A stretch of 63,909 nucleotides of DNA, counting the filler, from Hausera hauseri (Eukaryota): NCBI GenBank assembly GCA_046269625.1. It is 12 parts of 12 records of this genome, joined end to end, with 100 filler letters (N's around TTAATTAATTAA, not from the genome) between each part and the next. Parts side by side here need not be neighbours in the genome. Positions count along the whole stretch, not along the records: positions 40,855 to 50,734 come from JBJURY010274396.1; 11 more parts are not named here. One strand, 5' to 3'. A program made the position numbers and the translations under genes. Positions 2,172-62,250 of the stretch are shown here, piece after piece. The notes under the pieces are model-generated. The model was given only the letters and a program-made list of their open reading frames with translations. It did no database searches and was not told the origin of the DNA. The stretch's first letter is position 1, and every line of letters starts with the position of its first letter.

Positions 2172-2291
2172 CACCTACTTTCGACGTCAACGTGAAATAA
2201 CCAATCACAGAAGGCAGGTGGCAGCACATTGCAGTGGAGCGTATATAAAGGGTGTCGGAGGGAAGCGGAAAACATTGCAATCGTTGGCGTA

Positions 2292-27499: not shown

Positions 27500-30400
27500 T
27501 TTCTCGAGCTTTTACGGGATAATTGACCTCACACCACAGTTCACTTTGATAGCTTTGACCTAAATGCTATGGTTGACACTGGATCTAACGTTGCATTAAT
27601 AGCAAAACATGCAATTCCAGAAGAATTACAATCTCAAATAAAATTGGCTACTAAAGACTTGCCTGGTACTACTTCGGCCTTCCAGCAATGCAGTAAACCC
27701 TATGGATACTGGAAAGTGAACCATGAATTTGCGGACAGAGAGTCAAAATAACTTTTGATGTAATGATTACCTTGGATCCGCGATGCATTTTGGGTATGAA
27801 TGTGTTGCGCAAATTGGAAGGTGTACACATAAACTTATAATCGGGATAAATTTGTCCAAATAATGAAGATAAACTCCCTAATTACAACAAAACAGACATC
27901 TGGGTAGGACATGTTCAGAAAATACCACCCAATTCTAGAATGGTTACAAACGCCAGAACAGTATTCCCAGACAACAGTGTAATTGAGTTTGTGCCGAAAA
28001 CTCTTCTAAATGGACTTATATTGCCACACTATTGCGTTAATGTAATGGGAAGAACCATCCCTGTAGAAGTTTTAAATCCCACTCAAAGATGTGTCACAAT
28101 ATTCACTAAAATAAAAATTGGACAGGCATTAGAAACTACACGCCAAGAGAAATATGACAAAAATGTCGTGACCATTTCAACAGCGGAATATGATAATGCT
28201 GAAAACATACTTAATGTCGTTCTTACTAAAGTCAAGCAAATTTTATCAGATGAATATCTAAGGAATTTCTTAGACCTCATTTGTCAGTACCTTGATATTT
28301 TTGCAAAAAACGATACGGATATCGGACGAACAGATTTAGATTGTTATTTATGCTCGACCCCACAACCGGAAAAGAAGTAGATCTGTTACGACAACCTGTA
28401 CCAAAATGGTACCCTTCTCCAAAAGCACTCCAAAAGGAAGTTGAGTAATAAATTTAAGCTATGCTCGATAAAAGTATCGTAGAACCTAGGTAATCACCTT
28501 GGCCCTCTGCCATAGTTATGGGCAAGAAAGCTAATACGACTAAACACCGCCTGTGCGTAAATTACGTTACCTTAAACAAGCACTTAATGAATCATGCGTA
28601 CTAAATTCCGCAAATACGGGACGTCATTGATGAACTGAAGGATTGTAAATATTTTACCACATTAAACTTACCAAGTGGGTTTTGACAAATTGTCGTAACT
28701 GAAGGGGATCGATGGAAAACCGCATTTAAAACCCATACAGGAGTTTATCAATTCACACGCATGCCACTTGGCTTAAAAACGGCACCCACTTTCTTCCAAG
28801 AATTTATTCGTCTAGTACTAAAAGGAGTGCGGGGCTTATCGTACATTGACGACATCCTTATTGTGTCCAAAACATGGTCTGCCCATTTAGCGGAAATGAA
28901 GGAATTATTTGACCGAATCAGACTTGCTAAATTAAAATTAAATCCAAAAACATTTGAATGGTGTAAGAAGGAAGTTAGATACCTGAGATTTGTCGTTTGC
29001 AGTAAGGGGATATCAACAAGCCCTGAGTTAGTAAATAAAATACTGGAATACCCCCTCCAACCAATGTGGGTAAAATGAAACCATGGTTAAGATTGGGAGG
29101 ATTTTATGCTACCTTCATTCCCTACTTTGCAGAAATTAATCAGCCTCAATATAGGTTATTGCGGAAAGACCAAAAATGGAAATGGACCGAAGAGAACCAG
29201 AACGCATTCGATGAAATTAAAAAACGAATGGTGTCAGCACCAATATTAAGGTACCCAGATTTTTCACTACCATTCATTTTAAAAACTGACGCTAGCATTA
29301 AAGTCATTAGTTTTGTATTACCTCAACAAAGTCCAGAAGAAACAACCGAATATGTAATCGCCTACGGCGGACGTAGCTTGAATAATGCAGAGCGGAAATA
29401 CTCAACTACTGAATTTGAACTATTAGCTATCCGTGATGGATTGAGACATTACGAATATTATGTCTACGGTCATAAGGTTATAATATTTACTGACCACAAG
29501 GCGCTGTTGTCTTTGCGCTCAGACAACAGACATGTATCAAATCGACTCTAAAGATGGAAGTTGGAGCTTTTGAATTATGACTTTGAGTATCGATATCGTC
29601 CTAGCAAAGAAAACACAGATGCCGATGCTCTTTCGAGAATGCCATACAAAAGAATAGTAGCAGCAGCTTATAATTCGTTAGATAACGAGAGTGACAAACA
29701 TTTAAATGAGAAAATCATTAACGATATGTAACAAGAACAACGCAAAATCCAAGTATGAAATATCGAGACCTTACAAAACCTAGATCCCTTTATTGTTCAA
29801 ATCAAACAATTAATTAATAGACAATTAGTTGACTCGGTATCGAATCACATTCAAATCTTTTATGAAAAGTACCGAGTAAAATTAGAAATCGAAAATGACA
29901 TTTTACGACTGAAAGTCGGAGAACAAAAACTGGTCATGGTGCCGGTATCGGCTATCAACGCCGTCATGCTACAAGAACATGATTCACACTTAGCTGGCCA
30001 TCCGTTTTTAAATAAGACTCTAAAGCGTATTACCGCTAAATATTATTGGCCTCAAATGAATAAACAAATTGAAGGATGGGTACGTTCATGCAAAATGTGC
30101 GCTACAAGGAAAGATAGAGTACTTCGTATCAAACCGTTCTTAGGAAGCTTGCCTGAAGCTTGTAAGCCAATGGAAGTGTGTGCAATAGACATCTCTGGGC
30201 CCTTCCCAACATCGGACTTGGGATATAAATACAAACTGTCGCTTGTTGACTACTTCTCTCGCCACGTTGTACTAGTACCATTAAAAAACATGACTAGTGG
30301 TACAGTTGCTGAAACCTTTTTCTATAAAATTATTGCCGTACTGGGCACCCCGAAACAGTCGTTAACTGATCGTGCACCTTATTTCATTAGCGAGTTCTTT

Positions 30401-31000
30401 GAAAAATTATCAAAAATATTCCAATGCAAATATTTATTACCAACATCATACCATCCTCAATGTAATGGTATGATCGAAAGGATAAATCGTACCATTCAAG
30501 GTATTCTTTCTACAAAGGTAGCACAAGATCAAAAAGATTGGCACAATCATCTGAAAACTACGGCTTTTGCAATCAATACTACTCTTACCAAAAGCGCCAG
30601 TCATTCTCCTTTTGAATTAATGTTTGAACGAGTGCCTTTGCTGCCATTAGATACTGAATTACTACCATCCTCCTTGCTAGCTACTGATCATATGGATGAA
30701 CAATACCAGAATTTGCTTAAACGTCTTGAATATGCTCAACGCGAAACAAAGGAATTTGAAAAGAACTACAGATCTAGATATAAAAACACTTTAACAAGAA
30801 AGCACGACTGCATGCTTACTAAATTGCAGATTACATAATGGTCTACTACCCCGTGACGAAAGGCAAATCGTTAAAATTAACACGCACAGGCCAAGGACCG
30901 TACAAAGTCGTCGATGTACGCCCACAAACACTTTTTATTCAGAAAGAGCCCGACAAATACGAGGTTGTGTCAATTCAACAAGTAACCCGAGCGCCTACCT
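27500..31000 (+). pseudogene. Gypsy pol (protease, RT, RNase H, integrase)
   Basis: VDTGS, RMPLGLKTAP, YIDDILI, TDAS, YSTTEFELLAI, FTDHKAL, ADALSR, HDSHLAGH/CKMC, DISGP, YHPQCNGMIER and GPY motifs. Confidence 0.93.
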
Positions 31001-31129
31001 CATACAACGATTTCATGCACGAAACGGAGCTAGACATACCCAAAACGGAAAAGCCCAAAATAGCGGCAATGCTCAAAATTAAACCAATGAGTACCTCAGA
31101 GAATTACTCCGTTCACTTCATTTTTAGTA

Positions 31130-32540
31130 AATACCCTGGAACGTTTATCCTCATTTTTCTCGTTCTCCTCATACCTATTACAATAGCTGATACCAGCCTA
31201 GATACTACAACCACACCGCACACTGAATTAATTGAATGCNNNNNNNNNNACAATTATCAGTATAGATACATTTAAACCCAGTATTTGCTTTCGGACTTAC
31301 CTACCTGTAATGCGACACCTTACAGTTGATTTTGTCCTTTTGTCGCAGCATAACATCTCCTCTATTTGTACAATCCTTGAAGTGCATAATAAAACCTGCT
31401 GCTCCGTAAATTATGTTCAAACTTACACGTACCATGTATTATTGAAGATAAACAATACCAGTACTGTTCTTTGGGAGTGAAATATTATTCTGCACGTTCC
31501 CACTTACCGGGAGATGAATTTATTGGAAACTTTGATGTATTTTCACGCGACTCTTTTATCGCTCGATTCCTAGAATATAATATTAAAATCTGTTATATCG
31601 ACTTCACAAGACAACCTCCTTGCATGAATTTCCGCATCACATGTCTACTATCTTATGAGTTCGAAATCAGCATATGGCTCGACCCCATCTCTACACCCTT
31701 AATACAACCACATTATTGTTATCTTAAGCGAAATGATACTCGCTCATGTTGTACACTCTATCCATACATCTGGTGCAGAATCCGTTTAGATGCATACCAA
31801 ACACGAGGAAATAGACTATTCATTAGAGCGCATTCTCACCGTATTCTTATTCTTTTTTCAGTTAAACGCAACATACCCATTCCGGCCTTTGCTAAGCAAC
31901 ACATAACCTCACCACAATCTGTAAAAAAACTGATAACGCCAAAACTATGGACTACACCTACTATCAAGGAAAGGGGAGATCGAGATCAAGATCAGCTCAA
32001 ACTCAAATCACAAGTTCAATTCAAACCACAAAACCAGTTCAAAATACAAAATCAGCGGCCATATACATTAAAAAGGAAAACACATAAGCATGTATTCTAT
32101 GGGAAATGGATGAAAGAATTTCCCATCATATTCAAATTAACGCCCTACAAATACCGTATTCAGGTAATATTGCAAAATACGATTAACGAACGGAATCTCA
32201 TGATTACTTGTACGGGCTCACATGATAAAGCGAGCATCATACATGAAGCACATAAACGAAATTTTTGTGGAAAAACCAACGCCAGGTATCAATTATTTGG
32301 TGAGGATAGAGACCACGGATAACTCTAAAATTTAACCATAAAAACACTACCAGCAATAGATCAATATCTCCACATAAGATATAATAATGACGATGAAAAA
32401 TGGAAATCAACTACAGCTTGTCGAGGACTACGGAAACATATATCTTACAATATTGGTGGATATTCATATTGATAAAAGGTGTTGGTATTGTCCTTATAAT
32501 GCTTGTTGCACTGGGTAAAAAACCGAAGTGCGGGAATAGA
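31130..32540 (+). pseudogene. Env-position type I membrane protein with two C-x9-CC modules, an FN3-like module and a TM helix
   Basis: Hydrophobic FILIFLVLLIPITIA; CTILEVHNKTCC; CYLKRNDTRSCC; TPGINYLVRIET (shifted frame near 32280); TM YWWIFILIKGVGIVLIMLVALGKK. Confidence 0.65.
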
Positions 32541-32679
32541 TTACTTAAGGACTCTCACTATTCTATTATACAAGGAGGTNNNNNNNNNNNNNNNNNNNNN
32601 NNNNNNNNNNNNNNNNNNNNNNNTTAATTAATTAANNNNNNNNNNNNNNNNNNNNNNNNNNNNNNNNNNNNNNNNNNNN

Positions 32680-35600
32680 CAGAAACAGTACCCAGCAAGA
32701 GCAGCAGCAGGAACAGCATCAACAAGAAGAACAGGAGGCCAATATTCCCAACATTAGAGTCAATTACGACCTGAACAGATCGTACGTGGACATGAAGGTG
32801 AACATGACGGTAAAAACAGCAACACAATTGAAGGATGTACCTGCTCGTGTGCGTAACCGGCTGGAAATAGAGGTGACCCAATTCCAACAACACCACCACC
32901 ACTGCAAAGTGCAATATTATGCACTTGCAGAATTTGAAATTTTGGAAGGTGACAGGAAAGAATGGTACCTGTCACATCCAGCCGTACCGTATTCCGACGA
33001 TTTTATTGCCGACGTAGGCGAAAAGCTCGATGAGAAAATCGGCAACTACACGGAAAAGGGTAGTGGATGGCGAATTATACGAATTGTCACTTTCGTCTTT
33101 GTTGTAACGAAGTCGAGTGACATATTATATTTATCCGGGCGATCATTCATACCGACACCTGCAGCTGTGAAGCAGTCTCTGGCGGTAGTGAATGTAAAAA
33201 ATACTAACGACGGATACTGTTTTCTTTACAGTATTCTGGCGATATTGAAATACGACAAAGTGGACAGACATAGTGCATCTCGTCCAAAACAGTATCAGAA
33301 ATATTTTTCCGAATTGGATTTCGATGAGAGCTGGATGCCGATGAAACTGAAATCCATACCGACATTTGAACGGCGTAATCCGACACTGACAATCAACGTG
33401 TTCCGGTACAACACAGTCGTAGAAATACCAGCGGATGAAGAAATTTACAAAAACCCTCATGTAGATATAATCTATCAAAGTCGGAACCCAAATGGTCACT
33501 CAGTAGTAAATTTTGTGCTACTGGAGCAAGCAGATAAATTTCACTGTGGCAGTAACCAATTTGGACAGATTACTTAACATGGTTCACCATAAGTTTGTCC
33601 AAGAGCGTATACAATGTAAATGGTGTCCTGTATGTCTGCATGAATTCAGGTCGGAAATATCACGGGAGAAACATGTGACTCTGCAGACGAAATTCATCGG
33701 GAACCACAATGTATGTCATGACCGTCAAAAAGGAACTCAGGTTCACAGATAGATCAAAAACAGACAGTCCATCATATGTAGTATATGCCGATATTGAGGC
33801 AATTCTACCACCGCACAACGTGTATGATTAAAAACACGTTCCAATCGCCGTTGGTATGTTGACTGTCACAATAAAAGCGGTCGGTCAGCCGCAGTATTAC
33901 GCCTTTCAAGGCTGGACATGTGTGCGTGATTTTCTGCAGCGTTTGGAAACGATAGAAGAAATGGAAATCGCACCGTGGTATCGCAATAACAGCATAAAAC
34001 CCCTGATTTGGACAGATGAAGATGAACGCCTGACGTTTGCAGCCACCGATGAATGTTACCTGTGCCACCACAAAATATTACCGGAACGGCTCGTACTGGA
34101 TCACGACCATTTCACCGGTCGATACTTGGGGGAAGCATGCAACTCATGAAATTTGGCAAGACTTGTGCGGCCATTCCTGCCGGTGATATTTCATAAATTC
34201 AGGGGTTATGACTGTCACCATATTCTGAAATGGGCCATAAACGGATTTCCGCACTGAGAGCTACCCATAATCCCAACAATGATGGAGAAGTACCTGTCCT
34301 TATCGGCACGCATAAACCGGTTTCAGGTATGGTTTCTTGACTCATTACAGTTCCTCAATGAGTCCTAGCAAAGCTCGTAAATGCCTTGTCTGATGTGCCG
34401 CTAACACTGACGCAGTTCCCCACAAATATTGCACGCAGCAAAGGTATATTCCTGTATGACTTTGCCGTGTCATATGAGCGACTTCGGACAACAGAGAAAT
34501 TACCGCCGCGATGGACAGGTATCACAGAAGATGAATATCAGAGAGCACAGGAATCTTGGACAGAACTCGATTGTAGAAACATGTTGGACTACGTGCTTCA
34601 GTATCTAAATCTCGATGTGTACCTATTAGCCGATGTGTTTCGGACATTTCGGGCTAAAGCGTTGGAGGAAGATAGGTTAAAACCGCTCAACTTTTACTCA
34701 ATACCGGAAATGAGTTGGGCATTGGCACTAATGTCACTGGATTGGGACATTGAGCTGCTACAAGACTCAGAAATGTACCGACTTTTTGACGTTGGCATTC
34801 GTAGCGGCATGATATTTGTCAACAAGCATCACGTAACCAGTGATGACGATGATACATCGTCAATATTGTACATCGATATTAATAACATGTTCTGCTGGGC
34901 GCTTTTGCAACCCTTGTCGTACGGTTCATTTGAATGGATAATGGACGAACAAGAACTGGATACATTGCTGGACAGTCTGCCAGCAGCAAACATGACTAGA
35001 AGCAGCTCAGTCGGCTACCTAATGGAAGTTGATCTCGTGGTACCGGATGAGCTGCATGACTTTCTGGATGAACGGCCGGTCGCACCAATTAGCCAATGTC
35101 CACACGGCAGCTCAAAAGTAAAGAAACTGCTCATGACACATAAAGCCAAATTGAATTACGTGGTTCATTGGCGTCTGCTGCAGTTTTACATGCAGCTTTG
35201 TGTACGCGTCACACAGCTGCATCGTGCAATCCGCTTTAATCATGCGCCGATATTTAAGGCGTACATTAATGGAAATTCCGGGAAATGAGCTGCAGCTTGT
35301 ACAAAATTCAAAAAGGACTATTACAAGCTCAAAAACAAATCACTATATGGGAAAGCAGTGAAAAATGTGAAGAAGCTATTCAATGTTCTCCTGTGCAACA
35401 ACGAAAAACGACTAGTTACGTACACCAGCAAGGCTCAGTTTAGACGGTCAATGCAAATTGCCGATGGATTGGTCGTCGTGCTTCTAAACCGGGAAGAGGT
35501 CGTACTAGACCGGCCAAGCTACATCGGACAAGTGGTGTTGGACCTGAGCAAGTTGCGAATATACGAGCTCCAATATCGCGACTTGGAACGTTACCGGCAA

Positions 35601-37024: not shown

Positions 37025-37760
37025 AGTAGTAGTATAGTAAGAGGTAAACTAGTATCATTTTGAAGGCTGCGCAGAGGTGGGGCCAGGTGGACGTCAGGCG
37101 CAGGCACAGGGGCAGAGTTATGTGACGTCATAGGGAGCAGGCGGCACCCAGTGCCACATGCATGTGCTCGGAAATTAGAGTCAAAGGGAGAAGTTGTAGC
37201 GTGTATCTGGAAATTAAAGATGAGGGAAGGAGTCAGGCAGAGCAGAGAGGTGCCGCATGCATGTACCCAGAGTTGTGTTTAGAGTCAAAGGGGTGGAGTC
37301 AGGATGGTGTCTGAAGGGGGAGCAAGGGGAGGAGCTAGGCTGGCACAGCCTGGTACAAGGGGGCAGAGTTAGTCGTCACAGGCTGGTGCAAGTGTTGCGG
37401 GGTGTCACATGCGTGTACCCAGAAATTGAAGATGAGGGGAGGAGTCTGGCAGTGCATAGGGGCGGAGTCAGGTGACATCAGGTGTAGGCGTCAGGGGCGG
37501 ATTCAGTCAGTACAGGCGGTGTGGGGTCCTGCATGCATGTACCTGGAAATTAAAGACAAGGGGAAGAGTCAGGTGGAGCAGAGATGGCGTCTGAAAGGGG
37601 AGTAAGAGGACAATGTAGAGGCAGAGGCTAGTCAAGATGGTGGCTGAAGGCGGTGGTGGGATGACTTTTATCTAAGTTTTTAAGGCACAAGATGGCACCT
37701 GAAGGGTCCGTGTGGGCAAAGTCAGGCAGAGACCAGTCAAGATTGTGGCTGAAGGGTACT
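37025..37760 (+). repeat. Putative Polinton terminal inverted repeat / subterminal degenerate repeats
   Basis: AGTAGTAGTATAGT, then recurring GAAATTAAAGATGAGGG, GCATGCATGTACC, GGGGCxGAGT and GATGGxxxCTGAAGG units. The partner TIR is not in the window. Confidence 0.6.
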
Positions 37761-38371
37761 CGAGTAGATAAGGGGAGCACATTTTGTATATACAGATAAG
37801 ATATGATAGTAATTGCCTTGTAGATAAGCGCATCGTTGTAGGGTGTTGGTAACTGTTCAATTGATATACTGTGCGCTGACTGATCAAATGATGAGACAAA
37901 GTTCTGTGAATAACCGTTTGGTGGCGGGCTTTGCGCCGACTCGTCATACACGGGTGAAAAGGTCTGTATAGGAGCCCTTTGGGTGGCGATGGACTTGTCA
38001 TAAAATGGTAAAAAGTTCTGTAATGGTTCAGTGTTAATAAACGACATAAGGTTCGACGGAGGCTCGGTTTGTGTGGTAGCTGTGGCAGTTAACGGGTATC
38101 GTCCCAGCACGTCTTTTGGAACCGTTGCTATATAGTCGATGGCGGAAAAAATCTCTCTTTGCAAGGCGACGAGTTGTTCAAATTCTTCGTATGTGAGCGA
38201 GATTCCATTTTTAGTCGAGAACTTTTTGTAGCTTTCACCAAAGTATCTTCTAATATGCACCAACACTCTGTTTCGATACGAAGAAACTGTAACTAGCTTG
38301 GCCAGGCCTATCTGTCTTGCCAACGCAGCATCGCCGGTCATGTAGACGTTGTTATCAAACCACATAAACAT
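37628..38371 (-). CDS. PC4/Sub1 (p15) domain protein with a low-complexity tail
   Basis: LVTVSSYRNRVLVHIRRYF...TKNGISLTYEEFEQL matches the PC4 pattern VxVxxFxGxxxIDIRxY...KGISLxxxQWxxL. TATA near 38410. Confidence 0.8.
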   Translation of the reverse strand: MFMWFDNNVYMTGDAALARQIGLAKLVTVSSYRNRVLVHIRRYFGESYKKFSTKNGISLTYEEFEQLVALQREIFSAIDYIATVPKDVLGRYPLTATATTQTEPPSNLMSFINTEPLQNFLPFYDKSIATQRAPIQTFSPVYDESAQSPPPNGYSQNFVSSFDQSAHSISIEQLPTPYNDALIYKAITIISYLYIQNVLPLSTRVPFSHNLDWSLPDFAHTDPSGAILCLKNLDKSHPTTAFSHHLD

Positions 38372-38429
38372 TTTGAAAACAGAAAGCCCCTCTGGGTGTG
38401 CGACTCACTTATATACCATTATAACCGGT

Positions 38430-40854: not shown

Positions 40855-43800
40855 ACTTTCACTTTAATTTCCGCTTCCGGTTTATTTTTCAATAGTTTAG
40901 CGTACTCTCTTATTAACAGCTTGGGTACGGCACTATATGCGGTATTTTCGCTAGATAGTTTAGTCAAGGTGGGAATCAATTTCTTTAACTTATCTTCGCT
41001 TATGTTTATTTTCAATACACCGCTCAGTTCCCTTTCAGCCATTATGGGATCAAGTAGCATTTGCACGTCGAATTTCGTCTTATGCGCACCAGTAGGTGAC
41101 TCATAAATTTGTATTGGAGTTCTTTGACTTTGCTTGGTTAGATCTTGGAGATATTCATTCCACTCAGCTTCATTATCTGCGTCAGGTAATTCATAATTCG
41201 TTAGCGCCGTATGTCCGACCTGGACTATTTCGCGTAATTCTCTTATTTGCGGTTGCAATGTTTTTATCACGGATATTCTAAATCCGTCGCCGTTTCCGCA
41301 TGCTTGTTATATTAGTGTTATCAATCGACGCATTTCTTCTGGTTGTATCAAGGCTCTTTCCCAATAACTAGTAATTTCTGCGATTCTGTCACTTTGCCAT
41401 GTTTGTATAAATTCCGTTTTATCGTTCATTTCGGATTCTGTAAGCAAATATTTGTTTTTGTAAATTTCTGTTTCCCTTAGTAATTCGTTTAGCTCGCGTT
41501 GCCTTTTTTCGGAGCATAATGGGGTTTCTTTTATTAGCCGTATTCAATTTATTAATCGTTTAACTACTACTTTGTCGCTTTCTGCCATTTCTGTTATTAG
41601 TAAGATTAATTTGTGCATTTGATTTAATACTTCAGAGTCCGGATCTATAGCGTCCATTAGCCTGCCTATGAACTCGGCTTCGTCGGCTGTCAGCTGAAGA
41701 TCTTTTCTAATCTGTGTTAATTCAGTGTGGCAGTGTAGATCGAACCCCGGCGTCCATTCTGGTGGATTCTGTAAATACTGTGGTGTCTGTGCCAGAGCAA
41801 TCCGGTACTCATTACATACTTCTAATGTTTCTATCTCCTGTACAGAGATTTCCTTTAACGGTTTCTGTATTAGATTCTGTATTCCTTTCCAACGGATGCT
41901 TACTAAACTTCGTTGAAGATCACTTAGCTTATTTCTTTTTTTCTAGAAGTCCTTTTCTTCTATCACATTATATATCTCCGTTAATGTTGTTTGTTCTTGG
42001 TCCTTGTCATAAATTCAAGTTCTAGGAATGATTCAAATTTGATTTGTAATTTCGCTTCATCTTCCATCGTACCGATATACAGTAACATCTCTTCCAGTTG
42101 ATGTTTCATTATAGGCTCAGCTACGGCGAAATCTCACAATCTTTCATTTATTATTCCCGCTATGGTAGGTAACAAGTCTATCCACTTTCTTAATTGTTTA
42201 GATATTGCTAGTTTAGCATATATTATTTCGTCTAATGCCTTAAAAGCTTCTTTTAGTTCATGATCTGGTCCTCGTACAAATTCTATGGTTTGTTTTATGT
42301 AGTTGAATTCTTTTCTATACTCGTCTAATTCGAGAAAGCATGCACGTATTATTCTCCGTGCTTCTGCTTTTTCAAGGTGAACTATACCGATCTTTAAGTC
42401 GTTAATCTTGGCTCGTATTTTATTTTCTCTTTCAATACGTATTTTTAAATCTGGGTATTTCTGATGTTTATCCTTTATTAAGCTGCACATTTCTATTAGA
42501 AAAGAAATATCAATTTGGTTTATGCCTAATATCTCTAAGTTGACATTAATTAGTTCGTATACTGGCTTGTTATGAAGATAAAAAATTATCGCTTCTTCGA
42601 TCTCGTATAGCAATCTCTCTAAGTTACGTTTTACGCATTTTAGTTTTGGGTTGTTCTTAAGTGTGTCTAATAGTCCTTGCGTTTTATTGAGCTGGTCGAT
42701 AATCGGCTCGTTTCTATTCTATGTTTTCGTAAACTCAGTTTCACTCTTTGTCCACAATTCTAATTTCTTTTGCCAACTTTCTATCAAATCTTTCGGCGTT
42801 TCATGAAGTTCATATGGTATGTTTTCTTCTTCTTTCTGAAGTCCAGTTTTAAACTTTTTATATAATTTTTCTATGAACTGTTGTTCTTTTTCGGAGATAT
42901 CCAATTGTTTGCTCATCTGCTGGAGTTTCCGCAGGCTCTCAGGTAGTCTTTCGGGATCGTTCAGTGCGTCTCTTATTTCTATTAGCTCATTTGCATTTTT
43001 CCAAGATTTTCTAATCTTTCCAAGCTTCACCGGTTTTTTCTCTTCTGCTTCCTCTTCACTAGGTGGTAACGAACATACTTCATTGATTTCATCAATATTT
43101 GAGATTTTTGTTGTTTCCGGTGCTCTTTGGGTTATTACAGGAGTATTTAACTTTGTTTCATCTTTTAAAGTGATGGTAAAGTCTTCCTCTTTTTCTAATC
43201 CTTTCTGAATAGGGGCTGGTGAACGAGTTCTCGACCTTTTCCTAAGAGAAGCACGTCTTACTCTATATTTGGGTATCGTAAGCATTAGTGGGCCAATAAA
43301 TTCACTTTCAACCTCATTTGCTGTTTTATTCTTATTTTGGGATACGATTTCGGTATCTGCGTCCAAGTCTACACTTGAAGACGTAGTCGGCTTTTCTTCT
43401 TTCTCCTCTTTTGTCGCTTTATTTAGATTTTTCTTCCTTGCCATGTTAGTATTCTTAGGTGCTATAGCTTTTTCGTATTCCGTTTTTGGTTCTCTTAATC
43501 CATGATAAACTTCCATTTGTTGCAGCTTTTCTTCGCATTCCTTCCTAACCTTGATTACTTGCGGATTATTAGATTCGCCCATATTTCTTACATACCTTCG
43601 TAAGTCTTGCATCTCGATAATCATGCTTATATCACCTCGTTTTCCATAGATTCCTTGAAAATTATCTTTTATCATACTAGCTTTACTAATCTCTGCAAAT
43701 GATACACTCGGTGGATTAGGGCATGATAGGGCTACATGTCTTTCCTTACCACATGAATAACAAATCAAGTTTCCGTCCCTGCCGATCTTTTGTCGTCCGT

Positions 43801-44758
43801 CTTCATTTACTGGAGATTTAGGTCTACTTATTGTCTTGTTCTGAGCTTGCTTGTCAATTCCATTATTTCTATTTTCGAAATTTCCATTATCTATATATAT
43901 GTTCTTATTGCTTCGGTCATTATTTTGGCTCCTATCCGAAGTATAGCCTGTTTTGTTATAAAGGACTGTACGTGTTTCGATTATCACTAAAGTTCCTATT
44001 GTCATGTCTTATGCCGCAATTAGAGGCATTCTGAGCCCTATTCTCATAGCCTGGGTCCTTATTATTATCGTTAAATCTTCTATTGTTTCGGTTCCTATTC
44101 CGATTATCGCGTTCGTTATTTCGGTCATATTTATCACTCTGTCTAGCGTATCTATCTAATGCCATTTCTAAGTTTTGAGCTAATTGTAATGCTGTATCAA
44201 AATTATCTGGTCGAGCTAAAATTAGTTGCTTAACTAAATCTCTGGACCAAATACCGTTTATTAACTGAGTTGTCATCATGACATCTAAATCCGGCGGACT
44301 AGCATTTTCTGCCGCTTTGCGTTCTGCGTCTGTCTTTGCCTTTGCCGCATTTGCTATCCTTAGAGTACTTACGTAACTATTGGCAAGTTTCTTTAGTGCG
44401 AATGCGAATTGAGTAACCGATTCACCTTTTTGTTGTGTTCTGTTCTTAAAGGCCATAAGCTTCTGCTGTGGCGTCAATGTTGGCAATAGTTTGCGATTTA
44501 TGGCTCCTACTATAGAGGACCATGATTTTTTCTTGTCATTAGTAAGTTCATTATAAGCGTCTGCAGCCAGATTTTTGAAGTATAAAGACAATCGCTTATC
44601 ATAACCTCGGGCGCAAGACTGGCACCTTCTGCGAGCAATTTATAGGTTCGTAAAAAGTCATTTAGCCCGTCCGAGTCACCATCATATGCCGGTAAGTTCA
44701 ATGAATCGAACGTAAATATATCCAGTTTTTGAGCTACGGCTGGGTTCTCTGCTGCCAT
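40855..44758 (-). pseudogene. Gypsy gag with one CCHC knuckle and a very long charged/coiled-coil extension
   Basis: LPAYDGD, QQKGESVTQFAFALKKLA, PDNFDTALQLA and CYSCGKERHVALSC motifs, continued by ORFs 42719-44005, 42134-42613 and 40855-41270. Confidence 0.8.
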
Positions 44759-45117
44759 CTTTATTTTATTCGGTTTATCTATTTTAATTCTAGGAGGAGC
44801 TTTGAATTCTCTAACGGAGGTTAGTTCGGTGTCGGATAAATAATGCTTATCGATTACCTTGTCTTCTATATAAAGCTTATTTCGAGTTTCTCTTTGATTA
44901 TGTTTCTCTATACCGTTTATTAATAAGTTTGATTTGAGTTCGACCTATCAGTGTTTGCTCTTAATTTGATTTTTACTTAATTCCCTTCTAACCTCTTATA
45001 ATCCCAAGTTTAAACTCTTTACTAATAACGTATAACAATTATTTGGTGTAAGTGGTGCTATTCGCCCGTGTATCTTTAATAAACTCTCAAAAGTAATGTC
45101 TAGCGAGGTACAAACTG

Positions 45118-45134
45118 TCCTGCTAGGGTCGCCA
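45118..45134 (-). promoter_or_regulatory. tRNA primer-binding site
   Basis: TGGCGACCCTAGCAGGA, 4 nt after the LTR end; complementary to a tRNA 3' end (...UCCUGCUAGGGUCGCCA). Confidence 0.85.
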
Positions 45135-45138
45135 AATA

Positions 45139-45830
45139 TGTTACAGTTGGGGTGGCCCTTACCTTCTTCCTCTATAACAATATTTTCTCTAGATTTAATT
45201 TGTTGTATCAGCAGGTTAGAACTATTCGTTCTCGAATAGTCTGCTTGTGCCTTAAGATTTAACTGAATTTATGTAGTGATGCTGGTACTGCTTGCGATAA
45301 AATTGCGTGTCTCAAATTATAATATCTCAACTTATCTATGTATTTTAAGTAGATTTTATCCTTATGGAAGTCAAATCGTCTTTAAGAGACGATGAGAAAC
45401 TATAAAGGGATTTTAACAAACAATCAACTAAATAATAACCTTTATTTCTGATCACAGTTATGAACTCAACACAATGGATCACAAAATTTAACTTCAAATA
45501 GTCAATATCAGTTTTTAGCTCGCAGTTTTGGTTTGACTTGGTCGATTCTAAGTCGACGATTATTGTTCTCTCCTGTTCTGAAATAAGCCTGCTTATATAG
45601 TGGCAGGATCGGTGCCGAATACAATATTTACACATTGTTTCGAGTTTGCATGCAATTCCAATCAATTTCATATTTACTAATTAGTTATCACATATTTTGA
45701 TAAAGCAATTTTCTACATAAATTCACGATTACTATTTACAATTCATAACTCAACCACTTTCTTGAATAAACAATTCGCTTTGGAAATAACTTGTAAATAG
45801 CTTCGACTAGTTATAATTCATTATGTTACA
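45139..45830 (-). repeat. LTR (692 bp)
   Basis: TGT...ACA termini, preceded by purine-rich AGGGAGAAA and followed by the PBS; TATATAA near 45593. Only one copy is in the window. Confidence 0.85.
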
Positions 45831-45972
45831 TTTCTCCCTGAGCGGCATCCTCGGAGGAGCCTATTGCGTAAGAAGAGGTGGCGCCCAACGGCCTAGACTG
45901 TCTTAACTGATTCATTTTTTCTGGCAGGTCCGTCAGTGAATTTCGTTGGTCTCGACTGATTACTGGGCTTGT

Positions 45973-46395
45973 CTACAAGTTGTAACTATGGTAAGGCTTG
46001 ATCCTAACAATTCGTGTATAGTTCCCATCTGAGTAATATTTCAACTCCGTGGCCTCTGCTTGACATACTGGGCACGTTGTCTTTCCGTTGTTGAGTGTCC
46101 ACTTTTCTAGACAATCTCGACAGTATTTGTGGCGGCAATTTTTACTGTCCAAAACTACATAGCCTTGCCTTAAGTTTGCTTTACATACGGGACATTCACT
46201 ATCTTCCTTGTCCCAATCGTCTCTATCTAAGTCGACTTGAATAGTTAGTTCGATGAGTTCGAATACAAGGCCTTCTCCATCTTGATACAGGTATCCGTGA
46301 ATTACCTTCTGTTTAGGGTTAATTGAACTTTTACGTGGGTCACAGTTTACTTGTATCAGGGACCAATTTGTGATAATATCCTTGTTTAGGTCCAA
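45973..46395 (-). CDS. C3HC4 RING-finger protein (putative E3 ligase) inside the retroelement
   Basis: CPVC...CRHKYCRDC...W...CPVC. Confidence 0.85.
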   Translation of the reverse strand: MDLNKDIITNWSLIQVNCDPRKSSINPKQKVIHGYLYQDGEGLVFELIELTIQVDLDRDDWDKEDSECPVCKANLRQGYVVLDSKNCRHKYCRDCLEKWTLNNGKTTCPVCQAEATELKYYSDGNYTRIVRIKPYHSYNL

Positions 46396-46419
46396 AATCT
46401 TCCCTTCTATTTTATATTT

Positions 46420-46908
46420 TTAGTATTGTTTCTTTAACAATATGCGAATCTGTTTATCCACAGGAACTACTATTTTCCCAGTCCTCTTCGAACGGAAAAT
46501 TGATGTAAGTTCCCAGTTTAGTATCTTCCCATACATAGGTGTTTTCAAAGACTTCTCTCGCCGGGCGAGTTTGATGAAGAACATGGCTTCCTTTATTATC
46601 TTTTTACTATAGTATTCGGTAGTTGCCAGCATTCTAGGAAAATCTTGGGCTGTCCTGCAATGTACGTCCCCTTTTATTCTTTTTCCTATTAGGGCATTAA
46701 TTTCCGTTATTATGGGACTCTTAATTCCCTTTTTTAACGGTTCTATCTTCTGTGAGGTACTTGGCCTGCTTTGTTGGTTCTCCCCTTTTTGTTCCTCATC
46801 TTCCCCTTTCTTCTTGAATAGATAGTTGTAAATGGATAACGTCTTCCTGGGCTGGGATTTTTCTTCTAACTTCAGCTTTTTACTTATTGCTTCTGGCCTT
46901 GGTTCCAC
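46420..46908 (-). CDS. Hypothetical Lys-rich accessory ORF
   Basis: 162-aa open frame between the exonuclease-like and RING ORFs; no recognised domain. Confidence 0.4.
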   Translation of the reverse strand: MEPRPEAISKKLKLEEKSQPRKTLSIYNYLFKKKGEDEEQKGENQQSRPSTSQKIEPLKKGIKSPIITEINALIGKRIKGDVHCRTAQDFPRMLATTEYYSKKIIKEAMFFIKLARREKSLKTPMYGKILNWELTSIFRSKRTGKIVVPVDKQIRILLKKQY

Positions 46909-47165
46909 TTTTTGTTCCTCCGGAGACTTGGATGTTCCCTCTAATGTCTTATTTTCTTCTTTGATCTTCGTAATTCCGTTTTACCTTCTTGTTGTTCTTC
47001 CTTAGGTTCTTGTACTGTAATTCTGAGATTATGCTTGCCTGTTGGCTGGACGGTTCTGATCGGGAAATAAGGCTTTATGTTTTTTCTATATTTGACGTCT
47101 ATCAGTTCAGGTTTTAGGGAACTACGTAAATTATGTGTAGGGTTTCTAGGGGCCCCTTTGTGCTC

Positions 47166-48226
47166 CTATTTTAATGTCCTATAGATTTCCTGCAAATATT
47201 TGGAACGTTGGCTGACCGTTAGGAGTCTTGGAATCCTATTCAAGTCATGGCTCATTGCTTCGACCATTAGTTTAAAGAAAGCTTCTGGTACGGTCGGTCG
47301 ATTCCTTTCTTGTACGGTTTTCTCCATCCGTCCTTGGACCACTGGATGAGTGGCTATTGCTCTAAGTCCGGCAATATTTGCATCAGATATCCCTAATAGC
47401 TCAATCTCTCGTCGTACATTATAACCGGCTATCATACGGCCATAAAGACAATGGTCTAACTCTGAACTGACTTGCTGGATATCTGTCCCTCTTATGAGCC
47501 GGTCCCTTCTTATCCCAGTCACTTCTGCATATGACTCTTGGACATGCTTCATGGGGTTTATGAGTGTGGAATATATTTCAGTCCCATCTCGATGGGTATC
47601 CCATATCCATCGTCTCCTCTGCCACAATTCATTGCTAAGATTCTTATGTTACGTCCATCTTGGACTAGTCTATACGATTGCTTATGTTCGTCCTTTTCTA
47701 CTTCTGTCGGAGTCTGTTCAAATTCCAGAACTGGCAGCCCTAAGTTGCAGTTCTCTTTATAGGTCACTTCGAACATAAGTTTAACAGGAAGGGCTGCTAC
47801 TCTAAACTCCAGACCATAGTCGATACTTTCTAAGCCCTGTCTATTTATTCTAAATGTACTAAACCGATATTGATGCCCTTCATTGGAGTTCCATGGTTGG
47901 CCTTCTACTCTGTAGTATAGTTCCCCGTCAGCTAGGTGTATGTATACTTCTTGAGTTTTATTAGTTCGTTTTGGAATCAGTTCCTTTAGTGAGTAGGCTC
48001 TCGCTTGGTTATTTTCACGCATTGCGTAGAGGTAAACGGTTCGATTTTCTTCTGTTATACCCTTTAGGTCATTTGGGATCTCGGTCACCTTTGAAAATTC
48101 AATTGACGTTTCTGCTTGGAGGGCTTCAGTTATGCGTCGGTAGATGGATTTTGATTTGGATATGAATACTGTTGCGTGTTCCTTTAGGAAATTGTCGACG
48201 CTAATTCGACTGATCATACTTACCAT
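47166..48226 (-). pseudogene. Accessory protein: unknown N-terminal domain plus a DnaQ/REX4/ISG20-like DEDDh exonuclease fold
   Basis: ILAMNCG...IEMG, frameshift, then IYSTLINP...EVTGIRRDRL...LYGRMIAGYNV. Confidence 0.7.
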
Positions 48227-48404
48227 TCTGAAAGAAAATACAAAATAAGGGTCAATCCTAAAATAAAGTATTGTTCTAAATTTGAACCAATTCTTTGTTT
48301 GATGGCGGAATAACCCGATCTGTAGTTGTCAGGTTATTCCATCATTAATTCTATCCTGTGGTACCATCACCTTTAATTCCCTCTCATTGATTTTAGGGCG
48401 TTTA

Positions 48405-49739
48405 TTATAGCAGTTTTTTGGCTATCAATCGACAAAACGCAATTATCATTATGAGAGCAAATGTTGGTGATCCAATAATCGATATTAGTGATAAGGTTGT
48501 CCATTCAGTTAGTTTTTCCCTTTTAGTAGTAGTCGTAATTTCGTCTTCCTTTTCCTCGTTAATCGGTGGTTTCGTTGAAACAATCTCGTTGAGGGTCCGC
48601 GCCGTAAACATTCTCCTTTGTTTGTTTTCTGCACTCATTTGTATTATATAGTCCGTTTTGGGTTTCAGACCAGTGCATTTGGTTCGATAGCTACTCTTAA
48701 CCAATGTTACTTTCTAATTATTGTGTAATGTTCGGCAGTTTATTTTTACGTTGTAGTTAAGGATCTCTTCCACCATGAACGTTATTTCATGCTGTTGTGT
48801 CCAATATTTTATAGGAATTATTTCTAGATCCTTCTGAGACGATCTATTCGTTGGAATGACTTTGATGAGTGCGGGAGTAGTAGACTTTATTTTTGTATTT
48901 GTAATTCTACTCGTTGTCATTCCAGGTGAATTTTGCTCGATCGGATTTCTAAATTGGTAGCTTCCTAGATAAATACTCGACTGGTTTGTTCTGACTTCAT
49001 ATGAGTTTAACTAAATCCTATATTTATATTTCTGGGGTAACTTGCAACATCTTTTCGGTTGTTCGACGTCGATTTGACAGTACTGTTGGTTGTGAGCTGG
49101 TATATTCTCTTTCAGGAACTGGACCGTTATTACTCGACCGTTAATTAATTGTCCCTTTGTATTTATTTAGGCACAATTGTCCTTTGGATTTTCTGTTATA
49201 CTGGCGATATTTTCTTTCAGCATCCGATTTACTGGGTCGACGGACTGGAGCATTTCTTTGGGTTTTATCCCACGATGCCTGTTCGAAGCAGGGATGACTA
49301 ATTGGAATTGTGGTTTTATTTCATAGATTTTAGATAATTTCGGTAGATATAGTCGATAGGTAAGGTTATAAGTGCGTCCGAGATCCGTATTGCAGCATTG
49401 CTTATGCTCTCCGGGCTCAAAATCACAATTCTTTGCTTCTTTTGTTATTACATCCTCTAGGACGATTTGAAATCTTCCAAAATTGTGGTGTGGTCTCTGT
49501 GCCTTAAATCCAACTCATGTGGAGTTCGGCGAGTAATATTGAATTGTGACTGATTTTAATAACGTAATATCTTCTTGTCTTTGCGTTTCCTCTATTGTTG
49601 GTATCTTTTCCCCTGGTTTGGATCTACTTTTCCGCGCTCCATATACGTTTTTTAGTGTAGATCCGTCGTGCCACCATTGAGTTTCTGTTCCCGGAATATA
49701 AGAAGCAATTAGCGATAATGCTAAAACTATCTGAACGTA
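48405..49739 (-). pseudogene. Env-position type I membrane protein (signal-like segment, 2 x C-x9-CC modules, FN3-like module, TM)
   Basis: In frame behind the integrase TGA: YVQIVLALSLIASYIPG, CDFEPGEHKQCC, CQIDVEQPKRCC, GLKPKTDYIIQMSAEN and LSLISIIGSPTFALIMIIAFC; several stops. Confidence 0.72.
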
Positions 49740-50734
49740 TCATGTCGGTCTGGTGATAACTGACGAGGTCTTGTTTTCTTGTGGTCTTAGATTGTAATGT
49801 TTAGCTGGCCTTATATCCGTTCTAACTACTCTTTGGATCGATACGACTTCCTCTCTTCCGTTTTTATTGACATAAATCGTGGTTGGTGTTGTACGGATGA
49901 TTTCGTATGATCTTCTTTCAGTACGTGTTAATTTCAAGGATGTACCTTTCTTCATGACTGAGTAATGTATATAAACCAAATTTACCTTTTCCAGATCATG
50001 AGGCTTAGTCTTTTTATCATATTGTTTTTTAAATAGTTCCTGGCATTTGAGTGATAATGTTTTCGCAACTTCCCAACACTTTTGTAATCTCGTCTGTAGG
50101 ACTTCGGCAAAGTTTTGCTCTAAATCTTCGAGGTTCTTTTCGGACTGTGTCATGCCTAGATCTGTGGGTAAGATTGCTTCTCGTCCATGCATCATAAAGA
50201 ACGGTGTAAACCCTGTTTCTGGATGTGGAGTCGTATTAATCGCGAACTGTGTTCCTTCTAGGAATTCATCCAAATCCTTTTGTTCTTTTGCCACTACTGT
50301 TGAAAGTATGTGGATGACTGTCGTGTTCATTCGTTCGACCATTCCATTACATTGTGGGTGGTATGCGGTAGTAGTTAAACATCTTATTTCAAATATCTTG
50401 GTAATTTTTTCGAATAATTTGCTTGTGAAGTTCCTTTTTCTGTCCGATAAAATCTGTTCAGTTGGTCCGTATCTGCAGATGATTTTTCTTACCACTGCGT
50501 CGGCTAGAGTTTCTGCCTTTTGATCTAATAGTGCCACTAGTTCTACAAAGTGCGTTAGTCGGTCCACGCATGTCAGATTATATCTATTATTTTTGTGAGT
50601 TTTAGGAAGGGGTCCTACTATATCCATAGACATGGCTTGCATAGGTCTATCTGGTACGTTTATGGGTTTTAATTCTGCTACGTAGCACTTTGTTTTCTTT
50701 CGTTTTGCCGAGCAAACTTCGCACGCTCCTACCC
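49740..50734 (-). CDS. Gypsy integrase (C-terminal part of pol)
   Basis: CEVC, MDIVGPLP, LSD, TTAYHPQCNGMVER and TGFTPF motifs. The C-terminus SLKLTRT...EVVSIQ is shared with 30838-31000. Confidence 0.93.
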
Positions 50735-50834: not shown

Positions 50835-52604
50835 AGACGTACTAATATAACTATCAGTACTAGCATCGTCTAAGAGGACATTTATTCTTTCTTCATACTC
50901 TCCATTGCTTACTATCACTGGAATTGTTCTTAGCGACACTTCATCTTGCTCTTCTGTACTATGTCTTCCTGTTACATAGCTCTTGTTTTGATCTTTCTTA
51001 AATTTTTCTAATTCATTCGAACTTCTGTCGCTTTTACTTTGTGAGGATTCTCGTAACTTGTCCGGTTTAATGCTATCTGACGTATGTCTTCGATTACTAG
51101 TCCGTCCAACTTGCTTTTCACTCTTCTGTGAGTCTGATTCTGTAGTTTCATGCGCGAACTGACATTCATCGCCGTTTCTGCAGTTCCCTTGTTGGTAATA
51201 TCTGCATATCTTCTTATTTTTATCCTCTTTTTCATTACTTCCATGGGAATATTTGCATTTCTTCCCGAAAGTGCAATTTCCCTTTGCGTACGCCCAACAT
51301 GCTCCTTTAACAATTGGCATTTTGCCCGTGACTTCTGTGAAGTGGTTATAATGCTGATTTACCCTTTTTTCTTCTGTACCCTGACTTTTGCGGTGATCAT
51401 GGCCTTGGAAATATTTATAATCATTAGGTCTCGCACCTCCTCTTCTCTAATACATCTATTCCATGCGCGGATTCCGCTGATACTCGACGAATATCGGTTT
51501 CTTCCTCCAACCAATATTTTAACTCGCCGACGGTTTCATCTCTTCTACAACTTCTACGATATCTTTCCCATTGACTGATTAATGTCTCCGGTAACTTCTC
51601 TAGTACAATTTTATATAGTAGCCCACTATCAAGGTCATTCTCTTTGTTCAGGTTTCTAAGTCGCACCACAACGGCTTCCGATAGTGATACTAAGTTGTCT
51701 ATCTGCTTGACATTGTTCAGACTTACTTTCTCGAACATTCGGATTTCATCTATTAACGCAGCGAAATTTCTTTGCTTTCCACCATAAAACCTTTCGAGTT
51801 TCTGCAGTATTGCTTTGTACGACGTTTCGCTGATTCCAAAATTTGCTACTAACTTCTTTGCTTCACCGCTGAGACAGGCTTCTAACTTTATCTGTTTTTC
51901 TATTGCTGATACTAAAATTCGATGTACACAAACCTCAAACGTTTGTCTCCATCTGTAATTGTAATCTCTGTGATCTTTTGCCGATTTTTTTCTTGTTCGC
52001 TCCGATTAGCAACTATACCCCGTAGTCCTGCTACTACATCGGCACTTAACTGACTCAAGACCTCTCTATCTTGAATCAGGTCTTCTAGTTCATCGGTTCT
52101 GTTTTGCTGTCTCGCTATAATCTGAAGTTCTAGCATTTCCGACACTGTTTGTTCATACGTTTTGCAGAAATCATCATAAGTCCTTTTAAGTCCTTCTTCT
52201 GAATTATCCGCATATAGCTTTCCATGCATATTTTCTAACCTTGACTTCAATTTACCCTTTATCAGAAATCTTGTTTCGAATTCCTTTGTTAATCGTTTTG
52301 TGTTTTCCGAACTCGCCTTAAGTTTCTTCTCATAATTTTTATTTGACTTTTTGCTCCCTTCTTTTAATCCTAGAATTAAATGTATGGTGGTTCCATGAGC
52401 TAACTCCTCCACATCCTTGTCCGTCCTTATTCTTTTACCTTGATAGAAGACTTTTAAAGATTCTGCTGATACCTTCAATTTTCCTTCTATTTTGGCAATT
52501 AATTCATTTACTAATTTGATCTTCTCCACATTGATTTGGGTTAATACACCTTCTCAAACTCTTATAAACACTTGTTTGACGTTTTTCTCATCTTTTCTTT
52601 CCAT
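50835..52604 (-). pseudogene. BEL/Pao Gag-protease: ubiquitin-like domain, coiled coil, DUF1759-like capsid, 2 CCCH fingers, aspartic protease
   Basis: EKQIKLEACLSGEAKKLV...LERFYGG...LEKLPETL (BEL gag) and LRTIPV...NVLLDDAST (BEL protease). One stop and frameshifts. Confidence 0.85.
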
Positions 52605-61100: not shown

Positions 61101-61189
61101 AGAATGGGCTCAGCAAAGAACCTACTAACAAACATTCATGTAATGAGATAAACACGGTCGAAGTTGTTCATATATTCTATAAAAAATAT

Positions 61190-62250
61190 CCAGGCAATGC
61201 GCGCCCCATTGCAATATGATAACTTCAAATGGGTCGAGAATCTTGAAGACATCCCTATCATGGACCTAGGTCCCATTAGAGATACGGGATACATACTGGA
61301 GGTGGATATGGAATATCCGGCTTCCATCTACGTAAGACATCAACATCTGCCTTTTTTCCCTGAGATCAGACCTCCGCCCAATGGAAAGCAGAGAAAGCTG
61401 CTGTGTCATCTGTGTAATAGGGAGAGGTATGTAGTTCACTACGTAAATCTCCAGCAGGCAGTTAGACATGGACTTCATATTACTAAAATCCATAGAGCCC
61501 TGCTGTTCAGCCAGTGCATGTGGTTGCAGCCCTACATAGATCTTAATAAGAAGCTGCGGGCTAATGCCAAGAAAGACTTTGAGAAGGACCAATTCAAGCT
61601 TTACAACACCTCTGTCTTTGGCAAGACCATGAAGAACATCCGCAACAAGGTCAACATCGAGTTGGTCTGAATGGAAGCGGGAAAAGAAGCTCCTTGGCAA
61701 GCCCAACGTCCAGAGCAGCACCATATATGCTGAGAACGTGGTCAGCATATATATGCTGAAAACAGCATTGGTATTCAACAAGCCCATATATGTGGGTATG
61801 GCAATCCTCAACATGTCAAAGATCATAATATACAGATTCAATTGCGACATCATGGTCCCCAAGTTCAAGTGCATGCAGCTGATGTATATGGATACTGATA
61901 GTTTCATCTATTAGATCCATACAGAGAATATGTATGAAGACTTTGCCTAGTTGGCTCAACATATGGATACCTCGGAATACCCGAAGGATCATCCCAATTA
62001 TTAAATTGCCAATAAGAAAGTCATTGGGGAAATTCAAAGACGAGGTGAATGGAGCAGTCATGTCAAAATTTGTAGCTCTCTGATCTAAAATGTATGCTCT
62101 GGACGTATGTGGCCAAATCAAAAAGAGAGCCAAGGGCGTTCAAAGGGTTACCTTAGTCAAGAAAAGCAGTTTTCAGGACTATGTGACAATTCTGCAGGAG
62201 CAGACGCACATTATATCGGAAATTAGCAGGATCCGATCTAGGCATCGTCA
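61190..62250 (+). pseudogene. Polinton group-2 pPolB C-terminal fragment 1
   Basis: GYILEVD, LPFFPE, YVVHY, FKLYNTSVFGKTM, KPIYVG, YMDTDS, FKDE and KRAKGV motifs. Confidence 0.92.

Follow-up and report, generated by a model that had tools for sequence, protein, structure and literature searches.

A putative gene for a type I membrane protein with FN3-like domains occupies the env position of two Ty3/gypsy elements of Hausera hauseri

Introduction

The infectivity of LTR retrotransposons is usually explained as the capture of a viral fusogen. In a survey of 1512 elements, for which F- and gB-type baits were used, Env proteins of the F and gB types only were reported, the gB type being defined by a five-domain ectodomain; its main text never uses the words 'fibronectin', 'FN3' or 'immunoglobulin' (PMC13524379). 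Env-less gypsy elements of the MDG1/412/Stalker2 group cross cells via a small TM protein, the short, myristoylated and fusogen-like (FAST-like) sORF2 (PMC11952523). In the bdelloid elements Juno, Vesta and TelKA, the ORF3 slot is taken by genes other than Env, among them a DEDD exonuclease and small TM ORFs; their ORF3s are typically spliced, and no FN3 type is among those described in the available text (PMC5408684). The planarian Burro is a large gypsy element whose Gag-side polyprotein is very long; it has RING and further host-control domains, its Env, a fusion glycoprotein, is placed between gag and pol, and 'fibronectin' occurs 0 times in the accessible part of the review on it (PMC6431247).

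The two elements described here, from an assembly of Hausera hauseri (GCA_046269625.1), share with the surveyed env-bearing elements the order gag-pol-third ORF, a signal and a TM segment in the third gene and an animal-type Ty3/gypsy backbone. There the third gene is of the F or gB type, whereas the gene found here (ORF3) would encode three FN3-like sandwiches without fusion machinery. With the sORF2 elements they have in common that there is no canonical Env but a type-I-oriented TM protein, which in sORF2 elements serves cell-to-cell transfer. ORF3 differs from sORF2 by its length of approx. 480 aa, its folded multi-domain ectodomain and its signal peptide. Similarity to Burro is by description, and the position of the Burro Env is unlike that of ORF3. 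The fold and the type I topology are shared by FN3-containing receptors and adhesins of cells (fibronectin, contactin, NCAM, RPTP, Tie2, gp130, IFNAR and FNDC5), but none is a homologue of ORF3 at the sequence level, and the C-x9-CC pattern is ORF3's own. No FN3-bearing gypsy element was found in the literature covered; Repbase, subscription journals and supplements lie outside this coverage, and an earlier mention is possible.

Results

The window, i.e. the whole stretch of 63,909 nucleotides that was analysed, consists of 12 unrelated pieces with 11 linkers of 100 bases (N runs around TTAATTAATTAA) between them; two 10-N gaps were present at 5548 and 31240. Element 1 lies on the minus strand of the contig at 40855-50734, which starts within the integrase, and element 2 on the plus strand of another contig (26982-32579). 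Their features are given in Table 1.

Table 1. Positions of the features of both elements along the window.
Feature	Position	Strand	Remarks
Element 1: gypsy-type integrase	49743-50732	-	Open frame, 5' side cut by contig end; Pfam rve E 1.2e-12
TGA separating integrase tail from signal	49740-49742	-	P0003 aligns across; element 2 without stop there
Signal-peptide-like segment	49677-49739	-	Hydropathy; stretch near-identical in P0003
Putative FN3-like domain 1 (C-x9-CC)	49284-49556	-	One in-frame stop; bounds approximate; own model Z 8.0-7.6
Putative FN3-like domain 2 (C-x9-CC)	48942-49214	-	Two in-frame stops; bounds approximate; beta-sandwich in P0003 model
Thr/Ser/Pro-rich linker	48864-48941	-	Present in P0003 and P0004 too
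Putative FN3-like domain 3	48582-48833	-	One in-frame stop; Pfam fn3 E 0.011
Transmembrane helix	48426-48503	-	Hydropathy
Basic cytoplasmic tail in shifted frame, true 3' end of ORF3	48329-48421	-	Match to homologue tail
Accessory ORF, broken by frame shift, behind acceptor-like site	47166-48228	-	Second half weakly DEDDh-exonuclease-like
Accessory ORF bearing a C3HC4 RING finger at its C-terminus	45973-46980	-	zf-RING_2 E 1.6e-9; one in-frame stop
Purine-rich (polypurine) tract adjoining LTR	45831-45845	-	Sequence
Putative LTR, 692 bp, TGTAACA at both ends	45139-45830	-	Single copy in contig
Primer-binding-site-like TGGCGACCC behind LTR	45126-45134	-	Sequence
Gag (CCHC knuckle) and long broken polyprotein region	40855-44944	-	Retrotrans_gag E 0.032; rest without Pfam match
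Element 2: pol in gypsy order (protease, RT, RNase H, then integrase), broken	26982-31010	+	Integrase 40% identical over 191 residues
Element 2: ORF3 homologue with signal, two C-x9-CC domains, third domain and TM	31088-32579	+	P0003 tblastn/blastp, ORF3 profile

The integrase frame of element 1 (50732-49743) comprises 330 codons without a stop. Its relatives are 81 Pol polyproteins at E up to 1e-20, the best with 36% identity over 92%. Past the TGA, the same frame continues for 443 codons with four stops (49517, 49169, 49013 and 48716), compared to 29.9 expected from composition (P 4e-9), while the remaining five frames of the region contain 20-41 stops each. As its frame is broken by these four stops, this copy of ORF3 is a dead relic.

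An earlier note on this DNA had described a signal-like segment in the integrase frame right after the TGA, followed by two C-x9-CC modules, a Thr-rich linker, one FN3-signature module and a TM helix, and all of these were recovered. The start had a Kyte-Doolittle 11-mer maximum of 2.55 (residues 2-12), the C-x9-CC motifs were located at residues 105 and 221, and the linker (residues 271-290) contained six T and 11 S/T/P out of 20. Pfam fn3 scored 16.4 bits on the FN3-signature module, which is below the cut-off of 25 bits. The TM helix reached 2.31 as a 19-mer, and no other 19-mer exceeded 1.7 in any of the contig's three minus frames; the topology was taken from hydropathy together with the structure model. 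The extent given earlier (48405-49739) covers a real region, but the gene reaches 48329 in a shifted frame. The break is situated immediately behind the TM helix, from where the tail runs in another frame up to a stop at 48331-48329; none of 2000 shuffles scored as high as this tail against that of the homologue P0003, and 75 of 2000 did against that of P0004. Domain 2 is probably a duplicate of domain 1, judged by their alignment (score 45; 2 of 1000 shuffles as high). Domain 3 showed no sequence likeness to domains 1 and 2 (559 and 666 of 1000 shuffles as high, respectively).

Only three matches to ORF3 were obtained with phmmer among 1.84 billion representatives from mainly microbial collections. 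P0003 is an intact protein of 479 aa with 34% identity over query residues 1-423 (E 3.8e-59), and P0004 has 189 aa and 51% identity over residues 278-442 (E 1.6e-32); both are single-member ENA clusters. The third match, P0005 (E 7.5e-4), was rejected as a chance match to a repetitive bacterial MBG protein. P0003 is collinear with ORF3 of element 1 from signal to tail and retains both C-x9-CC motifs. At the C-terminal end of P0003 and P0004, a Tyr-x-x-Ile motif is present, which we take to be a sorting motif of the Tyr-x-x-hydrophobic type. A word-index search with the read-through protein gave none out of 2495 candidates, and the same search with the three-row alignment gave P0003 alone among 4827. 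The family is very thinly sampled in the collections searched. The link of the gene to gypsy is based on the two elements of the window and not on P0003 or P0004.

No host donor gene was found among the 1.84 billion representatives or in the PDB by sequence (no match) or profile search; two profile matches with E 0.23 and 0.67 were rejected. Owing to the FN3-like fold, capture from a host receptor is plausible. In the Atlas, the best score of P0003 was 0.88 for a 433-aa cluster of 166 members with Arthropoda as the commonest phylum (recognition 1885), which is a lead only, the threshold being 0.9; this cluster could be the ORF3 family or the host donor. FNDC5, IL-11Ra and FNDC9 followed with 0.85-0.87, also under the lead threshold, and an unbroken ORF piece of element 2 gave an uninformative 0.76.

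The P0003 model, computed by AlphaFold from a three-row alignment, had a mean pLDDT of 56.3 with 60-81 in the domain cores. It comprised a signal helix, a helix at 45-73, three all-beta domains of approx. seven strands each, a disordered linker and a TM helix. With Foldseek, FN3 arrays were found in all 41 PDB matches listed (best E 9.4e-10). The whole-chain TM-scores were low (0.13-0.18), which is to be expected if the hinges between the domains differ. VIA aligned 237-251 residues to three-domain FN3 fragments and domain 3 with Z 9.6 and an rmsd of 2.2-2.3 Å over 75-80 residues; 48 of the 50 matches listed were FN3-bearing by title or known domain content. ROS1, CD45 and cytokine receptors contain FN3, and a monobody is an FN3 scaffold. 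Domains 1 and 2 of element 1 itself were modelled from a two-row alignment in which the stops were written as X; the pLDDT was 57.3, and domain 2 came out poorly. Domain 1 matched mostly FN3 chains with Z 8.0-7.6 and 2.5-3.2 Å over 84-97 residues, and Z values of 8 or less, as here, are at a level that the tool calls possibly just a common arrangement. Domain 2 matched FN3 within arrays only and never alone.

Identity to cellular FN3 proteins in the structural alignments was 3-20%. P0001, P0004 and P0003 gave 16.4 bits, 13 bits and no match to Pfam fn3, respectively, so that the ORF3 domains are best described as FN3-like and outside the filed membership of PF00041. On the models, the sandwich fold can be assigned firmly to domain 3, reasonably to domain 1 and by inference to domain 2. 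The proposal that the modules fold as FN3/Ig-like sandwiches thus withstood the comparison with Foldseek and VIA, and the single FN3 module claimed earlier becomes three: domain 3 stands as FN3-like, and the C-x9-CC modules appear to be FN3-like too. In a viral structure library, the full P0003 model gave 141 matches at E up to 0.001. The best 50 were mostly FN3 proteins of phages and giant viruses, and FN3 proteins are hence also found in large DNA viruses and phages. None of these 50 was an F or gB protein by name, an absence that excludes no family, and rank 37 was a herpesvirus envelope glycoprotein whose type is not named. Domains 1 and 2 alone had no match in this library at E up to 0.001, which likewise excludes no family.

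ORF3 parallels Env in position, topology, size and the Tyr-based motif of its tail. The absence of a furin-site/fusion-peptide pattern, as noted earlier, was borne out: P0001, P0003 and P0004 contain no R-x-K/R-R, with one minimal R-x-x-R at residue 36 of ORF3 in element 1, and no internal hydrophobic stretch was detected in the latter. In the control P0031, both a furin site and a hydrophobic fusion peptide were present. A CX6CC motif was absent from ORF3. Regarding the F type (class I), the ectodomain model is all-beta past residue 73, and there was no Baculo_F match to the ORF3 proteins. Instead of the five domains of a gB-type (class III) protein, the ectodomain of approx. 400 residues was modelled as three sandwiches and a disordered linker. 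As to class II fusogens, the P0003 model has no elongated domain at its modest pLDDT, and absence from the fold lists excludes nothing. The WSxWS motif of class I cytokine receptors is absent from P0001, P0003 and P0004. With 479 aa, a signal and three domains, the protein does not resemble the short sORF2/FAST-like type with its tiny myristoylated ectodomain either. The core of the earlier proposal is supported by the fold matches and by the F and gB comparisons: in place of Env there is a type I membrane protein of FN3-like build that bears no mark of a class I or III fusogen.

A homologue of ORF3 is present in the same slot of element 2. It was revealed by a six-frame search of the window with the ORF3 profile, which gave, besides element 1, two matches on the piece 26982-32579 (E 7.8e-7 and 7.7e-6), and P0003 as sole query finds it as well (tblastn E 3e-8, blastp E 2e-6). 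The gene contains several frame shifts and one 10-N gap and is cut by the contig end; its hydrophobic 19-mers are at 31117-31147 and 32442-32466. Four of the seven C-x9-CC motifs in the whole window lie within the two ORF3 genes. In element 2, protease, RT, RNase H, integrase and ORF3 follow each other with nothing in between. This pol order is that of Ty3/gypsy elements; of pol, the contig of element 1 has the integrase only, and there too it comes last. An rve integrase with a GPY/F-type C-terminal module was found, with GPY in integrase 2 and a degenerate form in integrase 1.

Placement by integrase phylogeny had been suggested in the earlier note and gave a sister but no larger clade. A first tree of 81 rows, which left out P0075 because of its shortness, could not place integrase 1. 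Among 82 rows (P0075 dropped), integrases 1 and 2 were sisters with a support of 95.1 (SH-aLRT) in fast IQ-TREE and of 81 in FastTree. No larger clade was starred in these trees, and integrase 1, on its long branch, was not near the sole rotifer-named row. Both integrases are long branches (0.64 and 1.22), and their pairing may partly be an artefact of this. The best of 36 matches to the integrase tail of element 2 was integrase 1 (E 1.5e-7); in plain blastp with the integrase 2 core, two scorpion Pol proteins outscored integrase 1. As element 2 has a homologue in the same slot and the integrases are sisters, ORF3 appears to be a conserved trait of the lineage rather than a single pick-up. Signal, cysteines, three domains and TM have been kept across 40% integrase identity, which suggests selection for the element's benefit.

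Readthrough of the stop codon, one of two routes of expression proposed earlier, was not supported. P0003 aligns without gaps across the position of the TGA, with 15 residues preceding it, three of them Met, and in element 2 the integrase tail runs into the signal without a stop (30823-31239). In neither of these two comparisons was a conserved stop between pol and ORF3 seen, and the copy has four further stops. Most likely, the TGA (49742-49740) is a lesion like the other stops of this dead copy, and readthrough expression is very unlikely. Pol fusion, the other route, was borne out in part. The continuous frame of element 2 agrees with it, and there is a precedent in P0031, a gypsy Pol with the integrase in frame with an F-type Env via an internal signal (Baculo_F E 2.8e-9). 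On the other hand, P0003, the only intact homologue, stands in the record as a separate protein that has a Met of its own, and acceptor-like sites occur just before both signals: in element 1 at 49750 (11/16 pyrimidines) and 49731 (8/16), in element 2 at 31127 (13/16, as in 9 of the 122 sites of this piece). The ORF3 profile matched none of 81 long Pol relatives (28-47% identical, 579-2000 aa; best E 0.19), which is weak evidence. An ATG at 49743 overlapping the integrase stop was rejected as start of ORF3; it is in another frame, and P0003 aligns in that of the integrase. One long ancestral frame is favoured because ORF3 is in the pol frame in both elements. A continuous Pol-ORF3 frame, with or without added splicing, is probable, and a separate spliced ORF3 behind a real stop is possible but less likely.

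Downstream of ORF3, element 1 continues with two accessory ORFs. The acceptor-like site at 48228 in front of the first one (13/16 pyrimidines, top of 328 YAG sites) is the strongest in the contig. The first half of this ORF had no Pfam match. Its second half, weakly like DEDDh exonucleases of the REX4/ISG20 kind, gave leads only with Pfam RNase_T (E 0.11), PolC exonuclease (E 0.084) and ISG20L2 (E 0.82). The putative LTR is a TG...CA unit with the purine tract on one side and TGGCGACCC on the other, and a second copy is absent from the contig. An LTR flanked by purine tract and primer site in this way means that two elements lie in tandem or that the assembly is circularly permuted. No tRNA genes were found in the window. 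The other strand (+) has, at 45879-45889 and immediately ahead of the purine tract, the sequence TGGCGCCCAAC, which resembles a tRNA-Lys primer site and may be due to chance. The gag-side polyprotein exceeds 1300 codons. Gag is followed by approx. 1000 codons of charged sequence without Pfam match, probably helical, and no protease is reached, which is reminiscent of the giant polyproteins of Burro. This Gag probably belongs to the same family as element 1, and the full unit would be larger than 13 kb.

Discussion

We favour, tentatively, the reading that ORF3 is a non-fusogenic attachment protein for cell-to-cell passage and a stable third gene of a deep gypsy lineage. It proceeds from the architecture, from the fold of domains 1 and 3 and from the presence of the gene in the same slot of two distant elements. 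According to this, a deep and thinly sampled lineage of large Ty3/gypsy elements would keep a type I membrane glycoprotein in the env position, built from a cleavable signal, a short helical stalk, two cysteine-bridged FN3-like domains, a mucin-like linker, a third FN3-like domain and the TM helix. The signal would take the protein into the ER. The protein would be made as the end of an in-frame Pol-ORF3 polyprotein that signal peptidase cleaves, or translated from a spliced message, or in both ways, and the basic tail ending in Tyr-x-x-Ile would sort it. Displayed at the cell surface, it would bind a receptor of an adjacent cell, probably one of the germ line, so that capsids or vesicles could pass over through contact and uptake or with the help of a fusogen from elsewhere.

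A shared fold shows no function, and cytokine receptors have FN3 domains as commonly as adhesins do. ORF3 could hence be an immune-modulating accessory without a role in entry, i.e. a cytokine-receptor-like decoy or an inhibitory receptor on the expressing cells, encoded within a 3' cassette. The cysteine-bridged FN3 domains of IFNAR2, IFNGR, IL-22R1, gp130 and IL-9R were level with adhesion proteins in the structural comparison (Z 9.6-7.2), and both intact tails carry the Tyr motif. The RING ORF and the weak DEDDh lead, which resemble host-control accessory genes, share the cassette with ORF3. Burro elements, as described in the accessible text, carry apoptosis and ubiquitin domains (PMC6431247), and rotifer elements have non-Env ORFs in the ORF3 slot in the part of the source covered (PMC5408684). 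However, WSxWS is missing and no sequence link leads to any cytokine receptor; moreover, ORF3 is anchored in the membrane on a stalk rather than secreted, and it lies in the pol frame at the exact position of Env. We consider such a role unlikely, though a serious candidate. Improbable, in comparison, is a receptor-binding partner of a separate fusogen that is borrowed or encoded elsewhere in the element, e.g. in the gap between Gag and protease. The Burro env is placed in frame between gag and pol in the available text (PMC6431247). In element 1, more than 1300 gag-side codons are unexplained and the stretch up to the integrase, which might hold a fusogen, is absent from the contig. Against this, no second TM-grade segment was seen in any of the three frames on the minus strand of the 9.9-kb contig, the gag-side frames have no Pfam fusogen match, and element 2 shows nothing between its protease-RT-RNase H-integrase and ORF3.

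That ORF3 itself is a fusogen of a new class is hardly to be expected. In neither element was another membrane protein seen, and ORF3 fills the slot of Env, but it lacks a furin consensus, an internal hydrophobic peptide and CX6CC, and its ectodomain model shows, apart from a single long helix towards the N-terminus, three separate sandwiches. An equally remote explanation is a passenger useless to the element, i.e. a fragment of a host gene that was picked up once or is merely adjacent. Both copies in the window are broken, and stops are present in 4 of 443 codons of ORF3 vs. 0 of 330 of the integrase, a difference that is not significant (Fisher P 0.14). This explanation is largely refuted, since two elements 40% alike in their integrases have the gene in the same slot and in the same relation to the pol frame. 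In addition, ORF3 has no introns, its coding strand is as A-rich as that of pol (0.39-0.41), a polypurine tract and an LTR follow downstream, and an intact homologue exists.

The conserved cell-receptor fold in this slot suggests that a non-fusogenic surface protein can hold the env position, and the FN3-like ORF3 is a new type of third gene in a Ty3/gypsy lineage. It is doubtful whether it also represents a third class for the env slot of animal Ty3/gypsy elements beside F and gB, namely a fibronectin-like adhesin, encoded where the Pol frame ends, which moves the element between cells by receptor binding and uptake without a viral fusogen and is kept by a deep lineage. If it does, this lineage would be invisible to surveys baited with fusogens. 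The ORF3 sequence provides a bait for finding the lineage in animal genomes. ORF3 further makes it testable whether attachment alone, or an immune decoy, pays for a third gene.

Other features of the window

The remaining pieces contain sequences of different kinds. An 868-codon frame without interruption at 8961-11567 (-) has KH, DEAD and helicase C domains and is possibly a retrocopy or a transcript contig. Fragments of a family B2 polymerase, a PC4 domain and a TBP-like domain, at 34362-35288 (+), 61152-61670 (+), 37628-38404 (-) and 24907-25512 (+), are Polinton- or virus-like. A Tc1/mariner-type transposase in an open frame and a CENP-B-like HTH of a DNA transposon were detected at 2196-3332 (+) and 21670-22215 (-). 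The Tc1-like transposase, the DEAD-box helicase and the family B polymerase fragments on these other pieces are consistent with an animal assembly. At 50835-52553 (-), a ubiquitin-like domain (E 3.6e-6), DUF1759 (E 3.4e-16), which we take to be BEL/Pao Gag-like, and tandem CCCH zinc fingers (E 1e-15) follow in successive frames; this is a further element carrying unusual added domains.
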